Below are positions 2,428 to 18,798 of a DNA stretch of 64,000 nucleotides, in pieces (position 1 is the stretch's first letter; each line of letters begins with the position of its first letter). Source of the stretch: Candidatus Uhrbacteria bacterium RIFOXYB12_FULL_58_10. Its GTDB lineage: Bacteria > Patescibacteriota > Patescibacteriia > UBA9934 > GWF2-40-263. Both the position numbers and the translations under genes were made by a program. Where the stretch lies: positions 29,774-93,773 of the forward strand of contig MGFA01000019.1 in NCBI GenBank assembly GCA_001791645.1, written 5' to 3'. The notes under the pieces were generated by a model. The model saw only the letters and a list, made by a program, of their open reading frames with translations. It had not been told where the DNA came from and made no database searches.

Positions 2428-3639
2428 CTAGATCATCTTTTGTTTTCCCTTTCCGTTCGTTCGAATGACCTCGGCATCGACGGATCCGCGGGACAATTGT
2501 ACCGCGATTTCAGCCCCGATTTCAAGCAGGCTTGCGTCGGCTACCACACGGCCGCCAACAGTCACAATGGAATAGCCGCGGGCAAGCACGCGCGTTGGGT
2601 CGAGTTGCCTGAGCACGCGGTCGTACGAGAGGACGCGATCGCGCAGGCGCGATGCCCACGAGGCGAACGCGTCCTGCGAGCGCCGCGACAATACGAGCAT
2701 TCGCTGACGCTCTCGGTCGAGCGCAAACGACACCGTGCGCGTGGCGCGCTCCACCATGCGCTTATGGTGCGCCGCGATCTCAAACAGGCGCTCCTCGGCG
2801 CGGCGCGTCATCATGGCGATTTCGTAGTCCATGTCGCGGCGGTTCGGTACCACGCGCTCGGCCGCGTTGCTCGGCGTGGAGGCTCGAACGTCCGCGACGA
2901 AATCGCACAGCGACTCGTCGCGCTCGTGCCCCACCCCGCACACTACCGGAATCTTGGACCCGTACACCGCCCGCGCCACGGCCTCATCGTTGAACGCATG
3001 CAAGTCCTCGAGCGACCCGCCGCCGCGCGTAAGCACAAGCAGGTCCGGGCGCTCTTCGGGCGACATAGCGTCGAAGGCGTCAAAAGCTTCCAGAATTTCG
3101 GAAACCGCGTCCTTTCCCTGCACGCGAACCGAACAAAATGCCACCTCGACCCCTCCCCACCGGTTGTTGAGAATCCGCAAAAAATCGCCGTAGGCCGCGG
3201 CGTCCCGGCTTGTGATGAGCCCGATGCGCTCGGGAAACCTCGGCAGCGCGCGCTTGCGGCCGGCGTCAAACAATCCTTCGGCCTCCAACTTTTTCTTCAA
3301 AAGCTCGTACGCCCGCTTGAGCGCCCCTTCCCCCACCGGGTCGATCCGCTGCACGTCGATCTGGAACGTGCTCCACGGCTTCACCGTCGGATACCCGAAC
3401 ACGCGCACCTTCATCCCGTTCTCGAACGCGCCGAGAATCTTGTACGTCGTCCCGAAGCACGCCACCTTGGTCTTGGCGTCCTGCTCGTCCTTCAAATCGA
3501 AAATGATCCACTTCCCGTCCTTGACCGTGAACCCGGAAATTTCCCCCTCCACGACGATCTCGCCCGACGGGACATGCTCGCGCAGGACCGCGTTCACGAT
3601 CTGAAGATACTGGGAGACGGAGAGGACGTTTGCATCCAT
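2428..3639 (-). CDS. xseA: Exodeoxyribonuclease VII large subunit.
   Basis: N-terminal OB fold. Catalytic core motifs LITSRDAAAYGDFLRIL and RGGGSLEDL. 403 aa. Confidence 0.9.
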   Translation of the reverse strand: MDANVLSVSQYLQIVNAVLREHVPSGEIVVEGEISGFTVKDGKWIIFDLKDEQDAKTKVACFGTTYKILGAFENGMKVRVFGYPTVKPWSTFQIDVQRIDPVGEGALKRAYELLKKKLEAEGLFDAGRKRALPRFPERIGLITSRDAAAYGDFLRILNNRWGGVEVAFCSVRVQGKDAVSEILEAFDAFDAMSPEERPDLLVLTRGGGSLEDLHAFNDEAVARAVYGSKIPVVCGVGHERDESLCDFVADVRASTPSNAAERVVPNRRDMDYEIAMMTRRAEERLFEIAAHHKRMVERATRTVSFALDRERQRMLVLSRRSQDAFASWASRLRDRVLSYDRVLRQLDPTRVLARGYSIVTVGGRVVADASLLEIGAEIAVQLSRGSVDAEVIRTNGKGKQKMI

Positions 3640-11496: not shown

Positions 11497-12540
11497 TTAT
11501 TTTACTGTTTCTTCCCAAGAGAATCCAGGGCGACCGAAATGTCCGTAGGATGCGGTCTGGCGATAGATCGGCCGAAGCAGGTCGAATCGCTCGACGATTG
11601 CGTCCGGACGAAAGTCGAATTGTGCCTTCACGAGGTTCGCATAATCCATCTTGCTCCCGCGCGATTTCTCCGAGACTCCCGACGCCTCGAGGTGCACGGG
11701 CTCGGCACGACCCGGCGCGTACGCCGCGGTCACGAGCGCGGAGGACGCAAGCCCCTGCTCCACGAGCCACCGGGCCGCGGCGCGCGCCGCGTACAACCCC
11801 GCGCGCTTGGCACATCCGGGATCCCTTCCGGAAATGGACGCGTCGCCGTGCGGAATCAGCCCGCCATACGTGTCCGAGGCGAGCTTGTTCCCACTCATGC
11901 CCGATGACGCGGCGAACCCGGCGTGCACGAACGCCCCATTCGGATTGACATGCAGCTGCACGCCGTCCTCGCCGACCATCGGGGAAACGACGCGCTCGAG
12001 AATCGCGGTACGCACGTCGTTGAGCGCGATGTTTTGCGCGTGCGCGACCTGGATCGTCACGCACGTAACGCGATCGCGCTCGGCCACCACCTGCACCTTG
12101 CCGTTTGGCAACAACCAGGAAAACGATGGGTCCGTGCGACGCAGGTCGTCGAGGCGGCGGGCCATGTTGTTCGCGAACACAAACGCGCGCGGGAGCATCT
12201 CGCGCGTTTCCTTCGTGGCATACCCGTTCACGACCGCTGCGTCCGCGGGCACGCGAGCTCCCCGCAAAGGTTCGTCGGCCACGTTCACATTGACGAACAC
12301 CTCCGCTTCGTCCGCGTATCCCGTATCCGCATACGCCTGCTTGACGAGCGCCGCCACGTCAAAGTCCGCCCTTGACCGCACCTCTCCGCCCACCACGATC
12401 ATTCCGCGCGACCCGAGCACGCCCACATTCACGCGCGCCGCCGGATCACGACGCAAATACTCGTCCACGATCGCATCCGCGATCTGATCGCACACTTTGT
12501 CCGGATGTCCCTGCGTCACGGCCTCGGCAGCTTTGCGCAT
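11497..12540 (-). CDS. metK: S-adenosylmethionine synthetase.
   Basis: GHPDKVCDQIADAIVD and ASYGHFGR motifs. Start placed at the MRKAAEAV ATG (12540). The upstream extension is AT-rich leader. Confidence 0.85.
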   Translation of the reverse strand: MRKAAEAVTQGHPDKVCDQIADAIVDEYLRRDPAARVNVGVLGSRGMIVVGGEVRSRADFDVAALVKQAYADTGYADEAEVFVNVNVADEPLRGARVPADAAVVNGYATKETREMLPRAFVFANNMARRLDDLRRTDPSFSWLLPNGKVQVVAERDRVTCVTIQVAHAQNIALNDVRTAILERVVSPMVGEDGVQLHVNPNGAFVHAGFAASSGMSGNKLASDTYGGLIPHGDASISGRDPGCAKRAGLYAARAAARWLVEQGLASSALVTAAYAPGRAEPVHLEASGVSEKSRGSKMDYANLVKAQFDFRPDAIVERFDLLRPIYRQTASYGHFGRPGFSWEETVK

Positions 12541-12613
12541 ACCGCCGCATTTTACTCCATATAAAAAAAACTTATCCACACCAGAGAAAATTCCGCTTAA
12601 CCATTACCCTTGC

Positions 12614-12655
12614 GTTCGGTTTTTGTTCGGTGTATTATACGAACAGATACCGAAC
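12614..12655 (+). promoter_or_regulatory. LexA operator: two direct-repeat boxes GTTC-N7-GTTC (12614-12628) and GAAC-N7-GAAC (12641-12655) flanking TGtATTATA.
   Basis: gttcggtttttgttcgg TGTATTATA cgaacagataccgaacag. The direct-repeat GTTCN7GTTC is the alphaproteobacterial-type LexA box. Located 9-50 nt upstream of the lexA ATG. Confidence 0.6.
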
Positions 12656-12663
12656 AGAAACCT

Positions 12664-13278
12664 ATGAGCCTCACAAAGAAACAAGCTGAAATCCTTGCCT
12701 TCATCAAGGAACATATCGCGGACAAGGACTACGCGCCGAGCTATCGGGAAATCGCCGAGCACTTTGGTCTCTCTTCCCCGGCGACCGTACACCAGCACGT
12801 ACAGGCGCTCGCGGAAAAAGGAATGGTCTCGCTCGGCGAAGACGGAACCGCGCGCTCCATTGAGCTCATTGAAAAACAACCGCTCGACCCGTTCTCCATC
12901 ATGCTGCCGCTTGCCGGGCTCATCACCGCCGGCGTGCCAATCGAGGCAATCGAGGAAAATGAAACGATCGCGGTTCCGGCGCAGTTCGTCGTCGACGGCC
13001 TGAACTCGTACGTACTGCGCGTCAAAGGCCAGTCCATGATCGACGACGGCATTTTCGACGGCGATTACGTCGTCGTCGAACGAAACCCTTCCCCACGCAA
13101 CGGCGAGGTGGTCGTGGCGCTGCTCGACAATGCCTACGCGACGCTCAAGCGCTTCTACCGCGAACCGAACCGCATCCGCCTGCAACCGGCCAACTCCACC
13201 ATGTCTCCCATCTTCGTGAAGGACTGCATCATCCAAGGGACGGTGCGCGCGGTCATCCGAAAGTTTCAAACGGCATAA
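12664..13278 (+). CDS. lexA: LexA repressor.
   Basis: N-terminal wHTH (FIKEHIADKDYAPSYREIAEHFGL). C-terminal S24 peptidase with Ser (GQSMIDDGI) and Lys (TLKRF). Confidence 0.9.
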   Translation: MSLTKKQAEILAFIKEHIADKDYAPSYREIAEHFGLSSPATVHQHVQALAEKGMVSLGEDGTARSIELIEKQPLDPFSIMLPLAGLITAGVPIEAIEENETIAVPAQFVVDGLNSYVLRVKGQSMIDDGIFDGDYVVVERNPSPRNGEVVVALLDNAYATLKRFYREPNRIRLQPANSTMSPIFVKDCIIQGTVRAVIRKFQTA

Positions 13279-13562
13279 GACAACCTGACCATTTGGAATC
13301 TGTCGACGAGGCGCGAAGGGATCACGCGCGTCGTCGCCAGGTTTCAGATTGCCAAAATTAATTCGTAACGCATGATCCCAAAACCGATATGCCGAGCACA
13401 ACCCTCCGTCACCATGCGTTCACCTTCGCGTACCTTCCGGTTCGTCGCGTCCGGCGTTTCGAATCCGCGGTACGTGCCGTCCGCCTTCGCATAAGCTCCC
13501 GTCGAATCAAGGAAGTCATCCGCTCCACGCTCGCCGCCTCCTGGCCCAACAACACCTAATCT

Positions 13563-13814
13563 ATGGCACACGAAGTTATTAACGAGCCCGTGGACATGCT
13601 CGTCGCGTTCCGCGAAAATCGCGTCATCCCCAAGCGCATGATGTGGAACGCGCGCGAGTACGAAATCAAGTCCGTAAATCTCGTCCACACGGCCCGCGAA
13701 GGAACAAAACGCGTGTTCTACTTTTCCGTCTCAGACCTCACTAACTATTTCAAACTGAAACTCGATCCGGAGTTTCTCGAATGGCGCCTCATCGAGACGT
13801 ATACTGACGGATAA
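13563..13814 (+). CDS. Hypothetical 83-aa protein immediately upstream of dinB. Possible YolD-like/UmuD-analog accessory factor.
   Basis: Co-oriented with, and 25 nt from, the DNA polymerase IV gene, downstream of lexA. The YolD assignment rests on position only. Confidence 0.5.
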   Translation: MAHEVINEPVDMLVAFRENRVIPKRMMWNAREYEIKSVNLVHTAREGTKRVFYFSVSDLTNYFKLKLDPEFLEWRLIETYTDG

Positions 13815-13839
13815 TTTCCACATGCATGATCCCGCTTCT

Positions 13840-14870
13840 ATGAGCAGGATCATTTTGCATATCGACATGAACTCGTATTTCGCCTCCGTGGAGCAGCAGG
13901 CGAATCCTTTTTTGCGCGGGAAGGCGATCGGCGTGACCGGCAAGCGCACGGAACGCTCCGTGGTCGCGGCCGCGTCGCGCGAGGCAAAGAAACTTGGGGT
14001 GCGAACGGCCATGTCCACGTGGGAGGCGAAGCGCGTTCTTCCATCCATGATTCTCGTCATGGGCGATCCGGAAAAATATAGCGACATCACGCGGCGCTTC
14101 AATGCAATTTTTTTTGAGTTCACGCACCTCGTCGAGCGATTCAGCGTTGATGAAAGTTTCCTGGATATCACCGATTCGGCCCGTGACTTTCTAGGCGCGA
14201 CGATCATCGCGCAGACAATCAAGACACGGTTGCGCGAGGAATGCGGCGGGTACGTCACCTGTTCTGTCGGCATTGCCTCAAACAAGCCCATGGCAAAACT
14301 TGCCTCGGATCGCATGAAGCCGGACGGCCTCGTCGTCGTGTTGCCCGGACGCGAAACAGAGCTGCTCGACGCGTCCAGGCTCGAGGACGTGTGCGGCATC
14401 GGCCCGCGCATGGCCGTGCGCCTGAACGCGCTTGGCATTTTTTCGTTTCCGCAACTGCGCGCGTACCCGCTTGACCGCCTTGTCGGGGAGTTCAAGTCCT
14501 ATGCCCTTCGGCTGCATGATATCGCGCACGGACGCGGCGACGCCACGGTCTCGCCGGGCGAGGTTGACCCGAAATCTGTTGGACATTCGTACACGCTTCC
14601 GACGAACGTCAAAGATCCGCCCGTCATCCGACGGTATCTGCTTACCCTGTGCGACAAGGTTGCGTGGAGACTTCGCCGAGACGGCTTTGCGACGCGCTGC
14701 GTGACGGCATATGTGCGCTATGGAGATTTCTCCGGAGAATGTCTTCCGTTCTTTCCGCGCTCGACGCCTTGCAAACGCGTTATGGCGACCGCGCCTGGAC
14801 TCGCGCCTCACTCATTCGCACAAACGTTCTCGCCCGCACGAGCGGCTTCCGATACGACCATGAGCTCTGA
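13840..14870 (+). CDS. dinB: DNA polymerase IV (Y family), interrupted by an apparent frameshift at about 14736-14755. The C-terminal 45 aa are in the -1/+2 frame.
   Basis: MSRIILHIDMNSYFASVEQQANP and Y-family palm, thumb and little-finger motifs through ...VRYGDFSGE. The conserved C-terminal tail LSALDALQTRYGDRAWTRASLI is encoded in another frame (ORF 14649..14870). Confidence 0.7.
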
Positions 14871-14924
14871 AATCAAAATGACGGAATTCCTACATTCTTC
14901 ATTTTGCATTCCCCATTTTGCACT

Positions 14925-15503
14925 TCACTCAAACTCCCCTTCCAGCACATGCCGCGACGGATCGGGATTTCCATCCTTCGATTCGACGGTCACGACGATC
15001 TGCGTATACGCGTCATACTTCCCCGCTCCTGAGTCTGTCGAAGCGGACCATTCGAGCACCCACTCGCCAACGTCATTCGTCACGAAATCGCCAACGGAAA
15101 AATAATCGTATGGAACCTGGCGAAGCAACCAGGCCTCATACGCGTACGTCTCTCGATCAACATCAGGAAGGCTGGCCTTGATGGACAGGAAAAACTGCCC
15201 GCCATCGGTCTCTCGTTCCGCATTTGCGAACGACGAACCGCCTTTCGGATCGTGCAACGTCGCCTCGTTGGACGTGCCTTCCGCCGCCGCGATCACCGCG
15301 GATGCGACGGGCGTCGGGGTAAGCACGTCGACGATGGTATCCGAGGTGGACGCCGACGGCTCATTCTTCGGGGCGAACCGGAACCACCAAATGCCATAGG
15401 CGAACAACCCCGCAAGGACAGCGACGATGCCGAGCGTTCCGAAAACCGTGCCATACGGAACGGAACGCGGACGCCTGGAACGAAAGGACGAGCGTTGATA
15501 CAT
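14925..15503 (-). CDS. Hypothetical N-terminally anchored extracytoplasmic protein (192 aa).
   Basis: Start MYQRSS at 15503 abuts the malic-enzyme stop. One TM helix, then a Thr/Ser linker and beta-rich domain. The ORF-track extension is spurious. Confidence 0.55.
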   Translation of the reverse strand: MYQRSSFRSRRPRSVPYGTVFGTLGIVAVLAGLFAYGIWWFRFAPKNEPSASTSDTIVDVLTPTPVASAVIAAAEGTSNEATLHDPKGGSSFANAERETDGGQFFLSIKASLPDVDRETYAYEAWLLRQVPYDYFSVGDFVTNDVGEWVLEWSASTDSGAGKYDAYTQIVVTVESKDGNPDPSRHVLEGEFE

Positions 15504-15504
15504 A

Positions 15505-16647
15505 TCAAACCACGGCCTTGACCGCGTCGGCGACGATGCGCGCAGCCCCGCCCTCCAGCAAGGAGGGCAGAATATGCTCCGCGGTCGGTTCCTCGACCAT
15601 GGCGGCAAGCGCGCGCGCTGATGCGATTCGCATCGCGTTCGTAAAACGAGGTGTCCTCGCTTCCAATACGCCGAGAAACATGCCTGGGTATGCGAGCACG
15701 TTGTTGACCTGATTCGAGTAGTCGCTCCGTCCCGTGGCAACCACGGCTGCGCCCGCCGCCTTCGCGAGGTCGGGCATAATCTCCGGGGTCGGATTTGCCA
15801 TGGCGAACACGATTGCCCCGGGCGCCATCGCGCGTACCATCTCCTCGGTGACGATTCCCGGGGCGCTTACTCCCACGAACACGTCGGCCCCAACCATGGC
15901 CTCCGCGAGCGAACCCGTGCGCCCTTCGGCATTGATGCGCGCGGCCATCTTCGTCTTGGTATCGTTCATCCCGTCTCTCTCCACCGCGATGATGCCCTTT
16001 GAATCGACCATGGCGATATGCGTCGCCCCCGCCTCAAGCAACAGATTCGCCGTGGCGATGCCAGCCGCACCAACTCCGGAGATGACGACCGACGCGGATT
16101 CAAGCGACTTTCCGACGACTTCCAGGGCATTCAGGATTCCGGCCAGGACAACCACGGCCGTGCCATGTTGGTCGTCATGCATCACGGGAACATCGAGCTC
16201 GCGCGAAAGCCGATCCTCGATTTCAAAACACCGCGGCGCGGAAATGTCCTCCAGGTGAATCGCGCCGAATCCGGGAGCGATATTTTTTACGGTCGCGATG
16301 ATCGCCTCGGTATCTTGCGTGGCCAGGCAAATCGGAAACGCGTCGATACCAGCGAACTTCTTATACAAAATGGCCTTCCCTTCCATGACCGGCATGGCGG
16401 CCTCCGGACCAATGTTGCCAAGTCCAAGCACGGCCGACCCGTCCGTCACCACCGCGACGAACCGTCCCTTGATGGTGAGATCGTACGCCAACGACTTGTC
16501 CTTCGCGATTGCCTCACACGGCGCGGCCACGCCCGGCGTGTATGCAATTGACAGATCGTCGCGCGTCTCAAGCGACACGGTCGGCGCAAGTTCCATCTTC
16601 CCTCGCTTCTCGTGGTGCAGCTTCATCGATGCTTCTGCGTAGTTCAT
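15505..16647 (-). CDS. NAD(P)-dependent malic enzyme (small form).
   Basis: Malic_M/NAD-binding motifs (VISGVGAAGIA, GLGNIGP). ATGA start/stop overlap with uvrD at 16644-16647. Confidence 0.85.
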   Translation of the reverse strand: MNYAEASMKLHHEKRGKMELAPTVSLETRDDLSIAYTPGVAAPCEAIAKDKSLAYDLTIKGRFVAVVTDGSAVLGLGNIGPEAAMPVMEGKAILYKKFAGIDAFPICLATQDTEAIIATVKNIAPGFGAIHLEDISAPRCFEIEDRLSRELDVPVMHDDQHGTAVVVLAGILNALEVVGKSLESASVVISGVGAAGIATANLLLEAGATHIAMVDSKGIIAVERDGMNDTKTKMAARINAEGRTGSLAEAMVGADVFVGVSAPGIVTEEMVRAMAPGAIVFAMANPTPEIMPDLAKAAGAAVVATGRSDYSNQVNNVLAYPGMFLGVLEARTPRFTNAMRIASARALAAMVEEPTAEHILPSLLEGGAARIVADAVKAVV

Positions 16648-18743
16648 AGGTCTTCGATATTTCTCAAGAATGATCCGCCGGAGGGCTTCGTCGGCCTGCG
16701 TTCGCCGAGGTCGTCGAGGACGATGGTCGGCTCGTCGTCGCGCCACGCGGATTGAGTGGGACGCTGGCCGTGCGATCCGCCCGACGGTTGCCCGCGCAAG
16801 CGTATCTGCTCGACCAAACTATCGGGCAGTTCCTGAATGAACTGCGATGGCTGGCTGAACATCAGGGTATCACCCCCGCTCGAGATGGGATAGGTCAAAA
16901 ACAGATGGCGGCGGGCGCGCGTGGTCGCGACGTAAAACAGGCGGCGTTCCTCCTCGAGTCCCCCATCTTCGTCAAGCGCGCGCTGGTGCGGGAACTTGCC
17001 GTCCACAAGCCCCATCACGAACACCGCGTCCCACTCAAGGCCTTTCGCCTGATGGATGGTCGAGAGCACCAACCGCTCGCGATCGTCCGTCCCGTTTTCC
17101 CGCGCGGCGCCATAATCCTCGGTCAGCGTCACTTCCTCCAAAAACGTATTCACGTCCACGTACGGCTCCGCGAACAGCGCGAATTGCTCAAGGTCCTCCA
17201 GGCGATCCATGAAATCCGGATATTCCGCCTCGAGGTAATCGCGATACCCGCCCGTGATGACCGCGCGCACCATGTCCGCGGGACGCGTTCCCGAAAGCAT
17301 CTTGCGCAGCATCGACAGGACGGCATCGAATCCGCGGCCGGACTTCCCTTCAATGACGGGAGGCGACGCAACGAGGTCGCCGGCCGATTCAAAGCCGCGC
17401 AGTTTCTCAACGATCCTTCCCGCGGTCACCGTACCGATCCCCGACTGCAGCCCGAGCACGCGCGTCCATGAGAGCACGTCGCGCACGTTTGCCACAAGCT
17501 TCAAGTGCGACACCACGTCCTTGATATGCGCGCGCTGAAAAAACTTCATCCCTCCGCGGTAGTCATACGGGACGTCGCGCTTCGCGAGTTCGAATTCGAG
17601 CGATTGAGACTGAAAGGACCCGCGAAACAGCACGGCGATGTCGCGAAGATCGGTTCCCGCGTCGCGCAGCTGAAGCACTTGCTCGGCAATGTACTGTGCC
17701 TCTTGAAACTGATTGGCGGCCGGAACGAGATTCGGCTTTTCGCACCCCGCGCAAACGGCCCGCAGCTCCTTTTTGAACTGATCGCGATTCCGCCCGATCA
17801 CCGCGTTCGCGAGCGACAAAATCTCAGGACTCGACCGATAGTTTGTGACAAGACGAAACGTTTGCGCTTCCGGATACGTCTTCGGAAAATCCAAAATGTT
17901 GCGGATCTGCGCCGCCCGGAACGAATAGATGCTCTGCGCGTCATCGCCAACCACGAGCACGTTTTGATGTACCGAAGCGAGCTGCCGCACGATGTCGGCC
18001 TGCACGGTGTTGGTGTCCTGGTACTCGTCGACAAGCACGTACTGGAACTGCGTGGCGAGTCGATCGCGCACAGCCGGATTCGTATAGAGCAACTTTCGCA
18101 AAAGCAAAAGCAGATCGTCGAAATCCACAACGTCGGCGTTTGCCTTATGTATCTCGTACAGCTCGGCCATGCGCTCGATGGTCGGGATGAGATTCCAAAA
18201 GCCTGCGTGTTTCCGTTCGACGGCCTCGCGAGTGCTGAGTCCTGAGTTCATCGCGTACGAAATGACGTTGTGCAGGTTCGCGGGCGACGGGAATCGGCGC
18301 GCCGTGGTGTCTACCGCGAGCTCCTTCACGCACGCCTTGATGAGACTGCGCGCATCCTCCTCGTCCATGATGGTGAAGTTCGAGGTGTGCCCGACCGCGC
18401 TCGCGTGCACGCGCAACAAGCGGTTGGCGATCGAGTGAAACGTCCCTCCCCAAAGCCCCTTCGGATACGCGCACAAAAGTCCTTCGACGCGTCCAAGCAT
18501 CTCGCGCGCGGCCTTGTTCGTGAACGTGACGAGCAAAATGTTCTCCGGCGACACGCCGTTTTCAATGAGATACGCCACGCGATACGTGATGGTGCGCGTT
18601 TTTCCGGAACCCGCCCCGGCAAGCACCAGGCATGGCCCATCGCCGTTCAAAACGACGTCTAGCTGTTCCTCGTTCAATTCCTTGCGATAATCGATTTTAC
18701 AACGGCTGGGATCGAACTGATTTTGGAGGACGAACTCTTTCAT
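16644..18743 (-). CDS. uvrD: ATP-dependent DNA helicase UvrD/PcrA.
   Basis: Walker A AGAGSGKT, VDEYQDTN, and other SF1 helicase motifs. Confidence 0.9.
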   Translation of the reverse strand: MKEFVLQNQFDPSRCKIDYRKELNEEQLDVVLNGDGPCLVLAGAGSGKTRTITYRVAYLIENGVSPENILLVTFTNKAAREMLGRVEGLLCAYPKGLWGGTFHSIANRLLRVHASAVGHTSNFTIMDEEDARSLIKACVKELAVDTTARRFPSPANLHNVISYAMNSGLSTREAVERKHAGFWNLIPTIERMAELYEIHKANADVVDFDDLLLLLRKLLYTNPAVRDRLATQFQYVLVDEYQDTNTVQADIVRQLASVHQNVLVVGDDAQSIYSFRAAQIRNILDFPKTYPEAQTFRLVTNYRSSPEILSLANAVIGRNRDQFKKELRAVCAGCEKPNLVPAANQFQEAQYIAEQVLQLRDAGTDLRDIAVLFRGSFQSQSLEFELAKRDVPYDYRGGMKFFQRAHIKDVVSHLKLVANVRDVLSWTRVLGLQSGIGTVTAGRIVEKLRGFESAGDLVASPPVIEGKSGRGFDAVLSMLRKMLSGTRPADMVRAVITGGYRDYLEAEYPDFMDRLEDLEQFALFAEPYVDVNTFLEEVTLTEDYGAARENGTDDRERLVLSTIHQAKGLEWDAVFVMGLVDGKFPHQRALDEDGGLEEERRLFYVATTRARRHLFLTYPISSGGDTLMFSQPSQFIQELPDSLVEQIRLRGQPSGGSHGQRPTQSAWRDDEPTIVLDDLGERRPTKPSGGSFLRNIEDL

Positions 18744-18771
18744 AGCCCCGACAGATTAACACGTTTGGCAC

Positions 18772-18798
18772 AAAAAAAGAACGGTCCAAAGACCGTCA
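18772..18798 (-). terminator. Rho-independent terminator after ORF-B: GACGGTC-ttt-GGACCGT followed by TCTTTTTTTG on the minus strand.
   Basis: Hairpin overlapping the ORF-B stop, then a T7 tract. Confidence 0.55.

Follow-up and report, generated by a model that had tools for sequence, protein, structure and literature searches.

A probable LexA operator of paired GTTCG direct repeats in the lexA promoter of a Candidatus Uhrbacteria genome

We analyzed a 64,000-nucleotide stretch of the genome of Candidatus Uhrbacteria bacterium RIFOXYB12_FULL_58_10 (contig MGFA01000019.1, positions 29,774 to 93,773 of the forward strand), hereafter called the window, and focused on the promoter of its lexA gene. 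lexA is followed on the same strand by two small open reading frames (ORFs), ORF56 and ORF83, and then by dinB, while metK diverges from it upstream. The lexA product aligns end to end with the Escherichia coli and Thermotoga LexA structures, and in the structure alignment the residues of self-cleavage are in place: the Ala-Gly site (ITAG/V), the serine (GQSM), and the lysine (LKRF). Its relatives, among at least 120 listed, are 72 to 92% identical to it, and every name given by the source is Uhrbacteria, Parcubacteria, or Patescibacteria. The closest genome loci include Candidatus Uhrbacteria contigs. These names agree with the assignment of the genome to Candidatus Uhrbacteria (Patescibacteria), and an initial annotation that had spoken of a genome like those of the candidate phyla radiation was correct in this respect. 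The features of the lexA promoter are as follows.

12610..12615, plus strand: probable -35 element TTGCGT, which shares its last two bases with the start of LexA box 1.
12614..12630, plus strand: LexA box 1, GTTCGGTTTTTGTTCGG, a GTTCGG direct repeat 11 bp apart that fills the spacer between -35 and -10.
12633..12638, plus strand: probable -10 element TATTAT, 17 nt after the -35 element; TATAAT in most relatives.
12639..12655, minus strand: LexA box 2, GTTCGGTATCTGTTCGT (ACGAACAGATACCGAAC on the plus strand), which begins one base past the -10 element and lies over the expected transcription start region.
12664..13278, plus strand: lexA, 204 amino acids, ATG at 12664; Pfam LexA_DNA_bind (4.5e-20) and Peptidase_S24 (9.4e-31).

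The sequence upstream of lexA reads gcGTTCGGTTTTTGTTCGGtgTATTATaCGAACAGATACCGAACAgaaacctATG / ccTTGCGTTCGGTTTTTGTTCGGtgTATTATaCGAACAGATACCGAACAgaaacctATG, exactly as quoted in the initial annotation, which had proposed two GTTC-N7-GTTC direct-repeat boxes in opposite orientation bracketing the -10 element. Both matches are exact: GTTCGGTTTTTGTTC lies at 12614-12628 on the plus strand, and the inverted copy lies at 12641-12655 on the minus strand. The promoter hexamers are assigned from consensus and conservation, and on this assignment both boxes sit in the lexA promoter and overlap its core elements. Box 1 is placed in the spacer because lineages with a single box have it between a consensus TTGACA and TATAAT. 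The TTGC of the -35 element is invariant in Uhrbacteria, and more distant Patescibacteria read TTGACA or TTGACG there, 16 to 18 nt before TATAAT. Position 2 (A) and position 6 (T) of the -10 element are invariant in 16 Uhrbacteria promoters. A promoter scanner left the lexA -10 element unlisted, the -35 element matching its consensus at only three of six positions. An extended -10 element, which had also been suggested, does not hold because the TG at 12631-12632 abuts TATTAT (12633-12638) without an intervening base and because the TG is not conserved, the relatives reading tcTATAAT or atcTATCAT. We conclude, with a probability of about 0.9, that positions 12610-12655 form the core promoter and LexA operator of a lexA-orf56-orf83-dinB operon. 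This agrees with the operator first proposed and draws upon a bona fide lexA, scores far above background, a phylogenetic footprint, and a box at dinB promoters that are separate from lexA.

The bare GTTC-N7-GTTC pattern has six matches in the window against 4.09 expected, a number equaled or exceeded in 22 of 100 shuffles, and a pair of such matches no more than 50 nt apart appeared in 23 of 1000 simulated windows. Scans of the window with GTTC-N7-GTTC and with GTTCG-N6-GTTCG found both patterns at the chance rate once the two promoter boxes were set aside, and bare patterns are therefore unable to define a regulon. We built a 19-nt matrix from 34 non-identical boxes upstream of lexA in other genomes, leaving out the window sites; the source was 80 lexA loci fetched from other genomes, the best 80 of 362 LexA loci. 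With this matrix, box 1 scored 33.7 bits and box 2 scored 20.0 bits. No other site in the 64 kb exceeded 11.3 bits, and the maximum over 20 shuffled windows was 14.2 bits. The longer motif at the lexA promoter is clearly far beyond chance. A 17-nt matrix can also serve as an annotation anchor, as false positives are very rare when it is used to locate the operator in related DNA.

The motif is conserved across Patescibacteria. Of 55 Patescibacteria lexA loci, 50 have a coding-strand site of at least 15 bits upstream of the gene, and the same count holds for (G)TTCGGTTTTTGTTCGG between -35 and -10 and for the 17-mer of box 1, which is identical or has one to three changes. Sites of at least 15 bits are scarce elsewhere, with only three in the remaining 294 kb of those loci, one of which is a dinB promoter. 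About 20 further lexA promoters from metagenomes carry the LexA box as well. Across the 16 Uhrbacteria promoters, the invariant positions are TTGC, both GTTCG pentamers of box 1, the A and T of the -10 element, both CGAAC pentamers of box 2, and, farther upstream, a TTATCC.CA element at the DnaA box described below, whereas the flanks and the within-box spacers vary. The boxes are thus conserved among orthologous lexA promoters while the flanking sequence diverges, as is expected of an operator. The inverted box 2 is specific to some lineages and was found at 17 loci. The lexA genes of Magasanik-, Falkow-, Berkel-, and Saccharibacteria have a single box only, between TTGACA and TATAAT. Box 2 lies 24, 25, 31, 32, or 36 nt from box 1 depending on the clade, and the within-box spacing is always 11.

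In the matrix columns, the TTC of the first repeat is invariant and its G nearly so, and the GTTCG of the second repeat is invariant or nearly invariant. A G often follows each pentamer, the spacer is T-rich (TTTnT) and conserved, and conservation is lowest at the first G of the left repeat. As judged from these columns, the motif is better described as (G)TTCG(G)-TTTnT-GTTCG(G), which is longer than GTTC-N7-GTTC. Because the distance between the boxes varies while the 11-bp spacing is constant, and because lineages that lack box 2 keep box 1, we take the recognition unit to be the GTTCG direct repeat with an 11-bp period, and the palindrome to be a consequence of two units placed back to back. 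A correspondence between the LexA recognition helix and the half-site (SSPATVH versus ASPSTVH for GTTCG versus GTTCT) was suggestive, but exceptions exist and phylogeny is a confounder, and we did not use it as evidence.

Direct-repeat units also occur farther upstream at two loci. At L022 (947-1000) and L025 (2833-2880), four phased 11-bp units, GTTCGGTTATT CAACGGTTTTT ATTCGGTTTAT GTTCG, lie on the opposite strand about 95 nt upstream of the lexA box, and this array could be an auxiliary operator. We rejected minus-strand boxes about 90 nt upstream of lexA (L022, L025, and L038) as a marker of a divergent gene, since only L022 has one.

Next, we asked where else the box accompanies SOS genes. 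In L054 (a Berkelbacteria contig), L153, L170, and L203, dinB is encoded separately from lexA and carries a box in the spacer of its own promoter; in L153 and L170, the box belongs to an ORF83-dinB pair. L153, L170, and L203 came from an unbiased metagenome scan with the 16-mer of the box, which gave at least 120 matches. Among the matches listed, 20 to 21 are lexA promoters, three are dinB promoters, and one is a rarA promoter. In the last of these, a perfect 16-mer at 3298-3313 of L239 lies between TTGACT and rarA/mgsA (MgsA_C, AAA), which starts at 3329, 15 nt away, making this gene a candidate extra member of the regulon. The initial annotation had stated that absence of the motif from other SOS genes of the genome would speak against it. 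Here, dinB lies within the presumed lexA operon, and separately encoded dinB genes carry a box; on the evidence of dinB and the one rarA promoter, the motif is not absent from other SOS genes.

Several results weigh against the operator assignment. The matrix was trained on relatives of the window promoter, which makes the count of 50 in 55 partly circular. The matrix scan found no other strong LexA site in the window. Signature searches of the window detected no recA, uvrA, uvrB, ruvB, or recN, and these genes were not found in the fetched flanks of close relatives either; the fetched loci yielded only uvrA, adjoining distant Gottesmanbacteria lexA genes. The regulon evidence therefore consists of dinB on four contigs and one rarA. 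About 96 of the 120 listed metagenome matches to the 16-mer (~80%) are not at SOS genes and lie in unrelated coding or intergenic sequence. The matches in viral contigs are likewise mostly not at SOS genes, and the 16-mer alone is not diagnostic.

Other matches to the motif occur outside the promoters discussed above. The 16-mer is present in 68 viral contigs, mostly in phage repeats or intergenic stretches that are not followed by SOS genes. A family of large phages (about 100 to 170 kb, roughly 31% guanine plus cytosine [GC]; contigs L089, L093, L095, L101, L103, L105, and others, and L156) has it beside a Cheo-like CGAACAGGTGTTTG, with identical intergenic surroundings, and other phage contigs have tandem arrays of GTTCGGTTTTT units. 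On the minus strand inside dinB, matches of 11 to 15 bits lie about 40 to 50 nt into the coding sequence at L002 (3177-3193), L011 (2752-2768), L016 (3727-3743), and L021 (5042-5058). These probably reflect the codons of a conserved FASVEQQAN (GAA CAA CAA GCG AAC) and not an operator. In the window, a weak half-match to the LexA box, CGTTCTTTTTTTGTGCCAA, lies on the minus strand at 18765-18783, 22 nt upstream of a gene for a UvrD-type helicase (16644-18743, minus strand); at 9.6 bits, it is at the level of noise.

If the operator functions as proposed, one LexA dimer would bind each box on the head-to-tail GTTCG(G) half-sites with their 11-bp period. LexA on box 1, over the -35 element and spacer, and on box 2, over the start site, would leave RNA polymerase unable to bind or open the promoter, so that LexA would repress its own gene and the downstream translesion polymerase. 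Upon DNA damage, activated RecA would trigger LexA self-cleavage and the promoter would be released, yielding more LexA, the two small proteins, and DinB. We regard such an operator as real but largely ordinary: a canonical SOS switch that represses itself and has a translesion polymerase as its one clear output.

We weighed several other explanations of the repeats. The initial annotation had assigned them to the LexA box of Alphaproteobacteria, and the window could in principle hold a true alphaproteobacterial-type system, with lexA and its box acquired laterally from Alphaproteobacteria or shared with them through recent ancestry. The pattern GTTC-N7-GTTC fits exactly, and like the box of Rhodobacter, Sinorhizobium, and Caulobacter, the window boxes are direct repeats with an 11-bp period and GTTC at SOS promoters. 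Lateral transfer of an alphaproteobacterial-type lexA has been reported (Mazon 2006) and proposed for Acidobacterium capsulatum. The nearest LexA proteins outside Patescibacteria (45 to 50% identity) also have TTCG-N7-TTCG repeats in the promoter spacer. However, the host belongs to Uhrbacteria, and the best 80 of 362 LexA loci contain no alphaproteobacterial record. The conserved core is TTCG/GTTCG with a T-rich spacer and not GTTC with a free spacer; the half-site here is GTTCG(G), with the first G of the left repeat least conserved. Alphaproteobacterial LexA proteins have about 230 to 240 amino acids, a longer linker, and a different recognition helix, and the recognition helix of the 204-amino-acid LexA of the window (SPATVHQHV) is one that we take to be Firmicutes-like. 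Furthermore, direct-repeat recognition is treated as having evolved independently several times in a passage of PMC7739468. What stands of the assignment is the fit of the pattern, and an alphaproteobacterial origin of the system is improbable.

The functional unit might instead be the large palindrome, with a symmetric dimer on inverted half-sites (the inner TGTTCG-N10-CGAACA, the outer pair, or both) and the direct repeats incidental. The two boxes do form a 16-nt inverted repeat (12614-12629 and 12640-12655) whose arms are 88% complementary and 10 nt apart, and the larger palindrome around the -10 element noted in the initial annotation is present in this sense. LexA dimers of most phyla also bind inverted repeats, such as TGTTC-N4-GAACA in Verrucomicrobia. 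But there is no inverted partner in the lexA promoters of Magasanik-, Falkow-, Berkel-, and Saccharibacteria or in any of the four separate dinB promoters, and, where two boxes exist, their distance differs among clades as given above (24 to 36 nt), so that the spacing of the inverted half-sites is not conserved, in contrast to the invariant direct spacing. With the distance between its arms not conserved, the palindrome is very improbable as the functional unit.

The inverted repeat could also be explained without protein sites if it formed a hairpin: a cruciform in the DNA, or an RNA stem acting on lexA or metK as a terminator or attenuator. Folding of the single strand gave -11.5 kcal/mol (z = -3.8 versus shuffles), but the 16 aligned promoters showed no excess covariation, with a score of 0.046 against 0.035 in shuffles; 52 of 500 shuffles reached the observed score. 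Of the 16 pairs, eight are constant, and three spacer pairs fail to form in seven to eight of the 16 sequences. In addition, box 1 lies upstream of a conserved -10 element and would thus not be transcribed with lexA, the stem is not followed by a T-tract, a terminator-like site was not found, and lineages with one box are unable to form the stem. A hairpin is hardly credible as the reason for the repeat. Finally, a chance match or a by-product of promoter composition, to which the chance rate of GTTC-N7-GTTC within the window would be favorable, is effectively refuted by box scores above the shuffle maximum and by conservation of the motif over a phylum-level group of genomes with 30% to 64% GC. 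We therefore retain the direct-repeat LexA operator.

The lexA promoter contains a second element upstream of the LexA boxes.

12572..12580, plus strand: exact DnaA-box consensus TTATCCACA, 42 nt upstream of the start of box 1.

This is the only exact copy in the window, and in the 16 Uhrbacteria promoters, it is invariant save for one base in one sequence. An exact TTATCCACA lies within -120 to +60 of the LexA box at 35 of the 50 genome loci that have such a box (the loci with DnaA boxes near their LexA boxes are within L001-L054 and L149-L268). The offsets group around -22 (-21 to -24) and around -43 (-42 to -46), with reverse-orientation copies mainly at +33 to +47 and preferentially near +44, and the -43 class, to which the window copy belongs, lies two helical turns further upstream than the -22 class. 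Elsewhere, TTATCCACA is rare, with only four further copies in 297 kb of genome loci and almost none in about 900 kb of contigs. In metagenome matches chosen by the LexA 16-mer only, it was present in 15 of 20 lexA promoters versus two of 97 others, one of which proved to be a lexA promoter on the opposite strand. It also precedes the separate dinB promoter of L054. Since TTATCCACA is present where metK is not a neighbor, it is not tied to metK. We found no description of an association between DnaA boxes and lexA promoters in the searchable literature. The match to consensus suggests that DnaA binds at TTATCCACA, and it is possible, though we hold this only tentatively, that the lexA promoter of Patescibacteria is a composite controlled by DnaA and LexA. 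If DnaA does bind, the status of the replication initiator would be linked to expression of the SOS repressor and of the sole translesion polymerase in these bacteria with tiny genomes. We regard this association as the part most worth following; ORF56 and ORF83, which travel with dinB, could also repay experiments.

The genes around the promoter are listed below.

13389..13559, plus strand: ORF56, small and basic, 56 amino acids, between lexA and ORF83; probably in the lexA operon.
13563..13814, plus strand: ORF83, 83 amino acids, directly 5' of dinB; synteny in 28 genome loci.
13822..15105, plus strand: dinB, Y-family translesion polymerase, last gene of the presumed lexA operon; Pfam IMS (6e-40) and IMS_C (7e-13).
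11497..12540, minus strand: metK, divergent neighbor with three S-AdoMet synthetase Pfam domains; context only.

The gene order lexA-ORF83-dinB is kept in 28 loci, and the matrix scan of the window found no LexA box between lexA and dinB. Because the order is conserved and no box intervenes, a single LexA-controlled operon is the simplest reading, and we presume that lexA, orf56, orf83, and dinB are transcribed together. ORF56 is conserved at the protein level in the same position in about 20 Uhrbacteria loci, with the pattern MS..LR.H..T..FLP.RR.R...LR...SRRR.KQ, and matched no family, Pfam included. The ORF83 family has 81 to 83 amino acids and is always directly 5' of dinB. It has 85 database relatives, of which those with a name are all Patescibacteria, and it has no Pfam domain. 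The AlphaFold2 model of ORF83 (predicted local distance difference test score of 93.6) is an all-beta meander of seven strands without a significant PDB match. Some Joint Genome Institute records label ORF83 "ribosomal protein L24E," which looks spurious.

On the other side, metK probably starts at the ATG at 12540, before MRKAAEAVTQGHPDK. Rfam and tRNA scans of the window were empty, and thus there is no S-adenosylmethionine riboswitch before metK. The synteny with metK is confined to Uhrbacteria, whereas the LexA operator ranges wider. Because the boxes begin 74 nt from the metK ATG and because the operator is also present where metK is not a neighbor, the sharing of this region with the metK promoter is unlikely to matter.

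The closest known system is that of Patescibacteria themselves. A passage of PMC7739468 cites Sanchez-Osuna, Barbe, and Erill (2017, Environ Microbiol 19:3465) for direct-repeat LexA recognition in this group and gives such recognition several independent origins. The 2017 work (doi 10.1111/1462-2920.13826), which characterized the SOS system of Patescibacteria, is also cited where lineages with a documented SOS response are enumerated. The window operator shares the superphylum, the regulator, and the direct-repeat type with that motif; its host is a member of the group, and its direct-repeat structure is plain in the alignments. That motif was reportedly also validated in vitro in the 2017 work. 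The window operator is probably the same as the published motif and most simply one more instance of it. The phylogenetic signal that the initial annotation expected of such a box in this host is accordingly not new, a direct-repeat motif of Patescibacteria being already in the literature, as the same passage of PMC7739468 indicates.

The geometry extends to other groups. The nearest LexA proteins retrieved from outside Patescibacteria belong to Myxococcota, Acidobacteriota, Gemmatimonadota, Binatia, and Bdellovibrionales. L055, L056, L057, L060, L061, and L068 have TTCG-N7-TTCG between a TTGAC-like -35 and the -10 element of lexA (at about 2830-3000), and L055 has an inverted CGAA-N7-CGAA downstream as well. 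These promoters suggest that the direct-repeat geometry may extend well beyond Patescibacteria and Alphaproteobacteria.

The half-site itself is shared with palindromic systems. Its pentamer, CGAAC/GTTCG, is identical to that of the Cheo box of Firmicutes and Actinobacteria, CGAAC-N4-GTTCG, but the Cheo half-sites are inverted and 4 nt apart, whereas those of the window are head to tail and 6 nt apart. Because the pentamer is that of the Gram-positive box arranged head to tail, it does not point to an alphaproteobacterial LexA. A Cheo box at the lexA promoter was considered and rejected: CGAAC-N4-GTTCG is absent from 12500-12700, and its frequency across the window is that expected by chance, in agreement with the initial annotation, which had set the site apart from Cheo-box palindromes. 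The TGTTC-N4-GAACA palindrome of Verrucomicrobia likewise shares its TGTTC/GAACA half-site with the window, along with multiple adjacent sites at lexA promoters and the reuse of the half-site in varied arrangements. However, its spacer is 4 nt, whereas the inner inverted half-sites of the window are 10 nt apart with a spacing that is not conserved. The operator thus adds a clear case in which the LexA half-site GTTCG is put to use again in another geometry.

It is common for lexA promoters to carry LexA sites in tandem, and such sites are bound cooperatively (PMC4951493). The two-box layout of the window is a variant of this theme. In E. coli, the lexA promoter is autoregulated through two tandem SOS boxes with the motif CTGT-N8-ACAG. 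The window promoter resembles it in its predicted autoregulation and in having two operators that overlap core elements, and it differs in that the two sites are mirrored around the -10 element instead of being in tandem.

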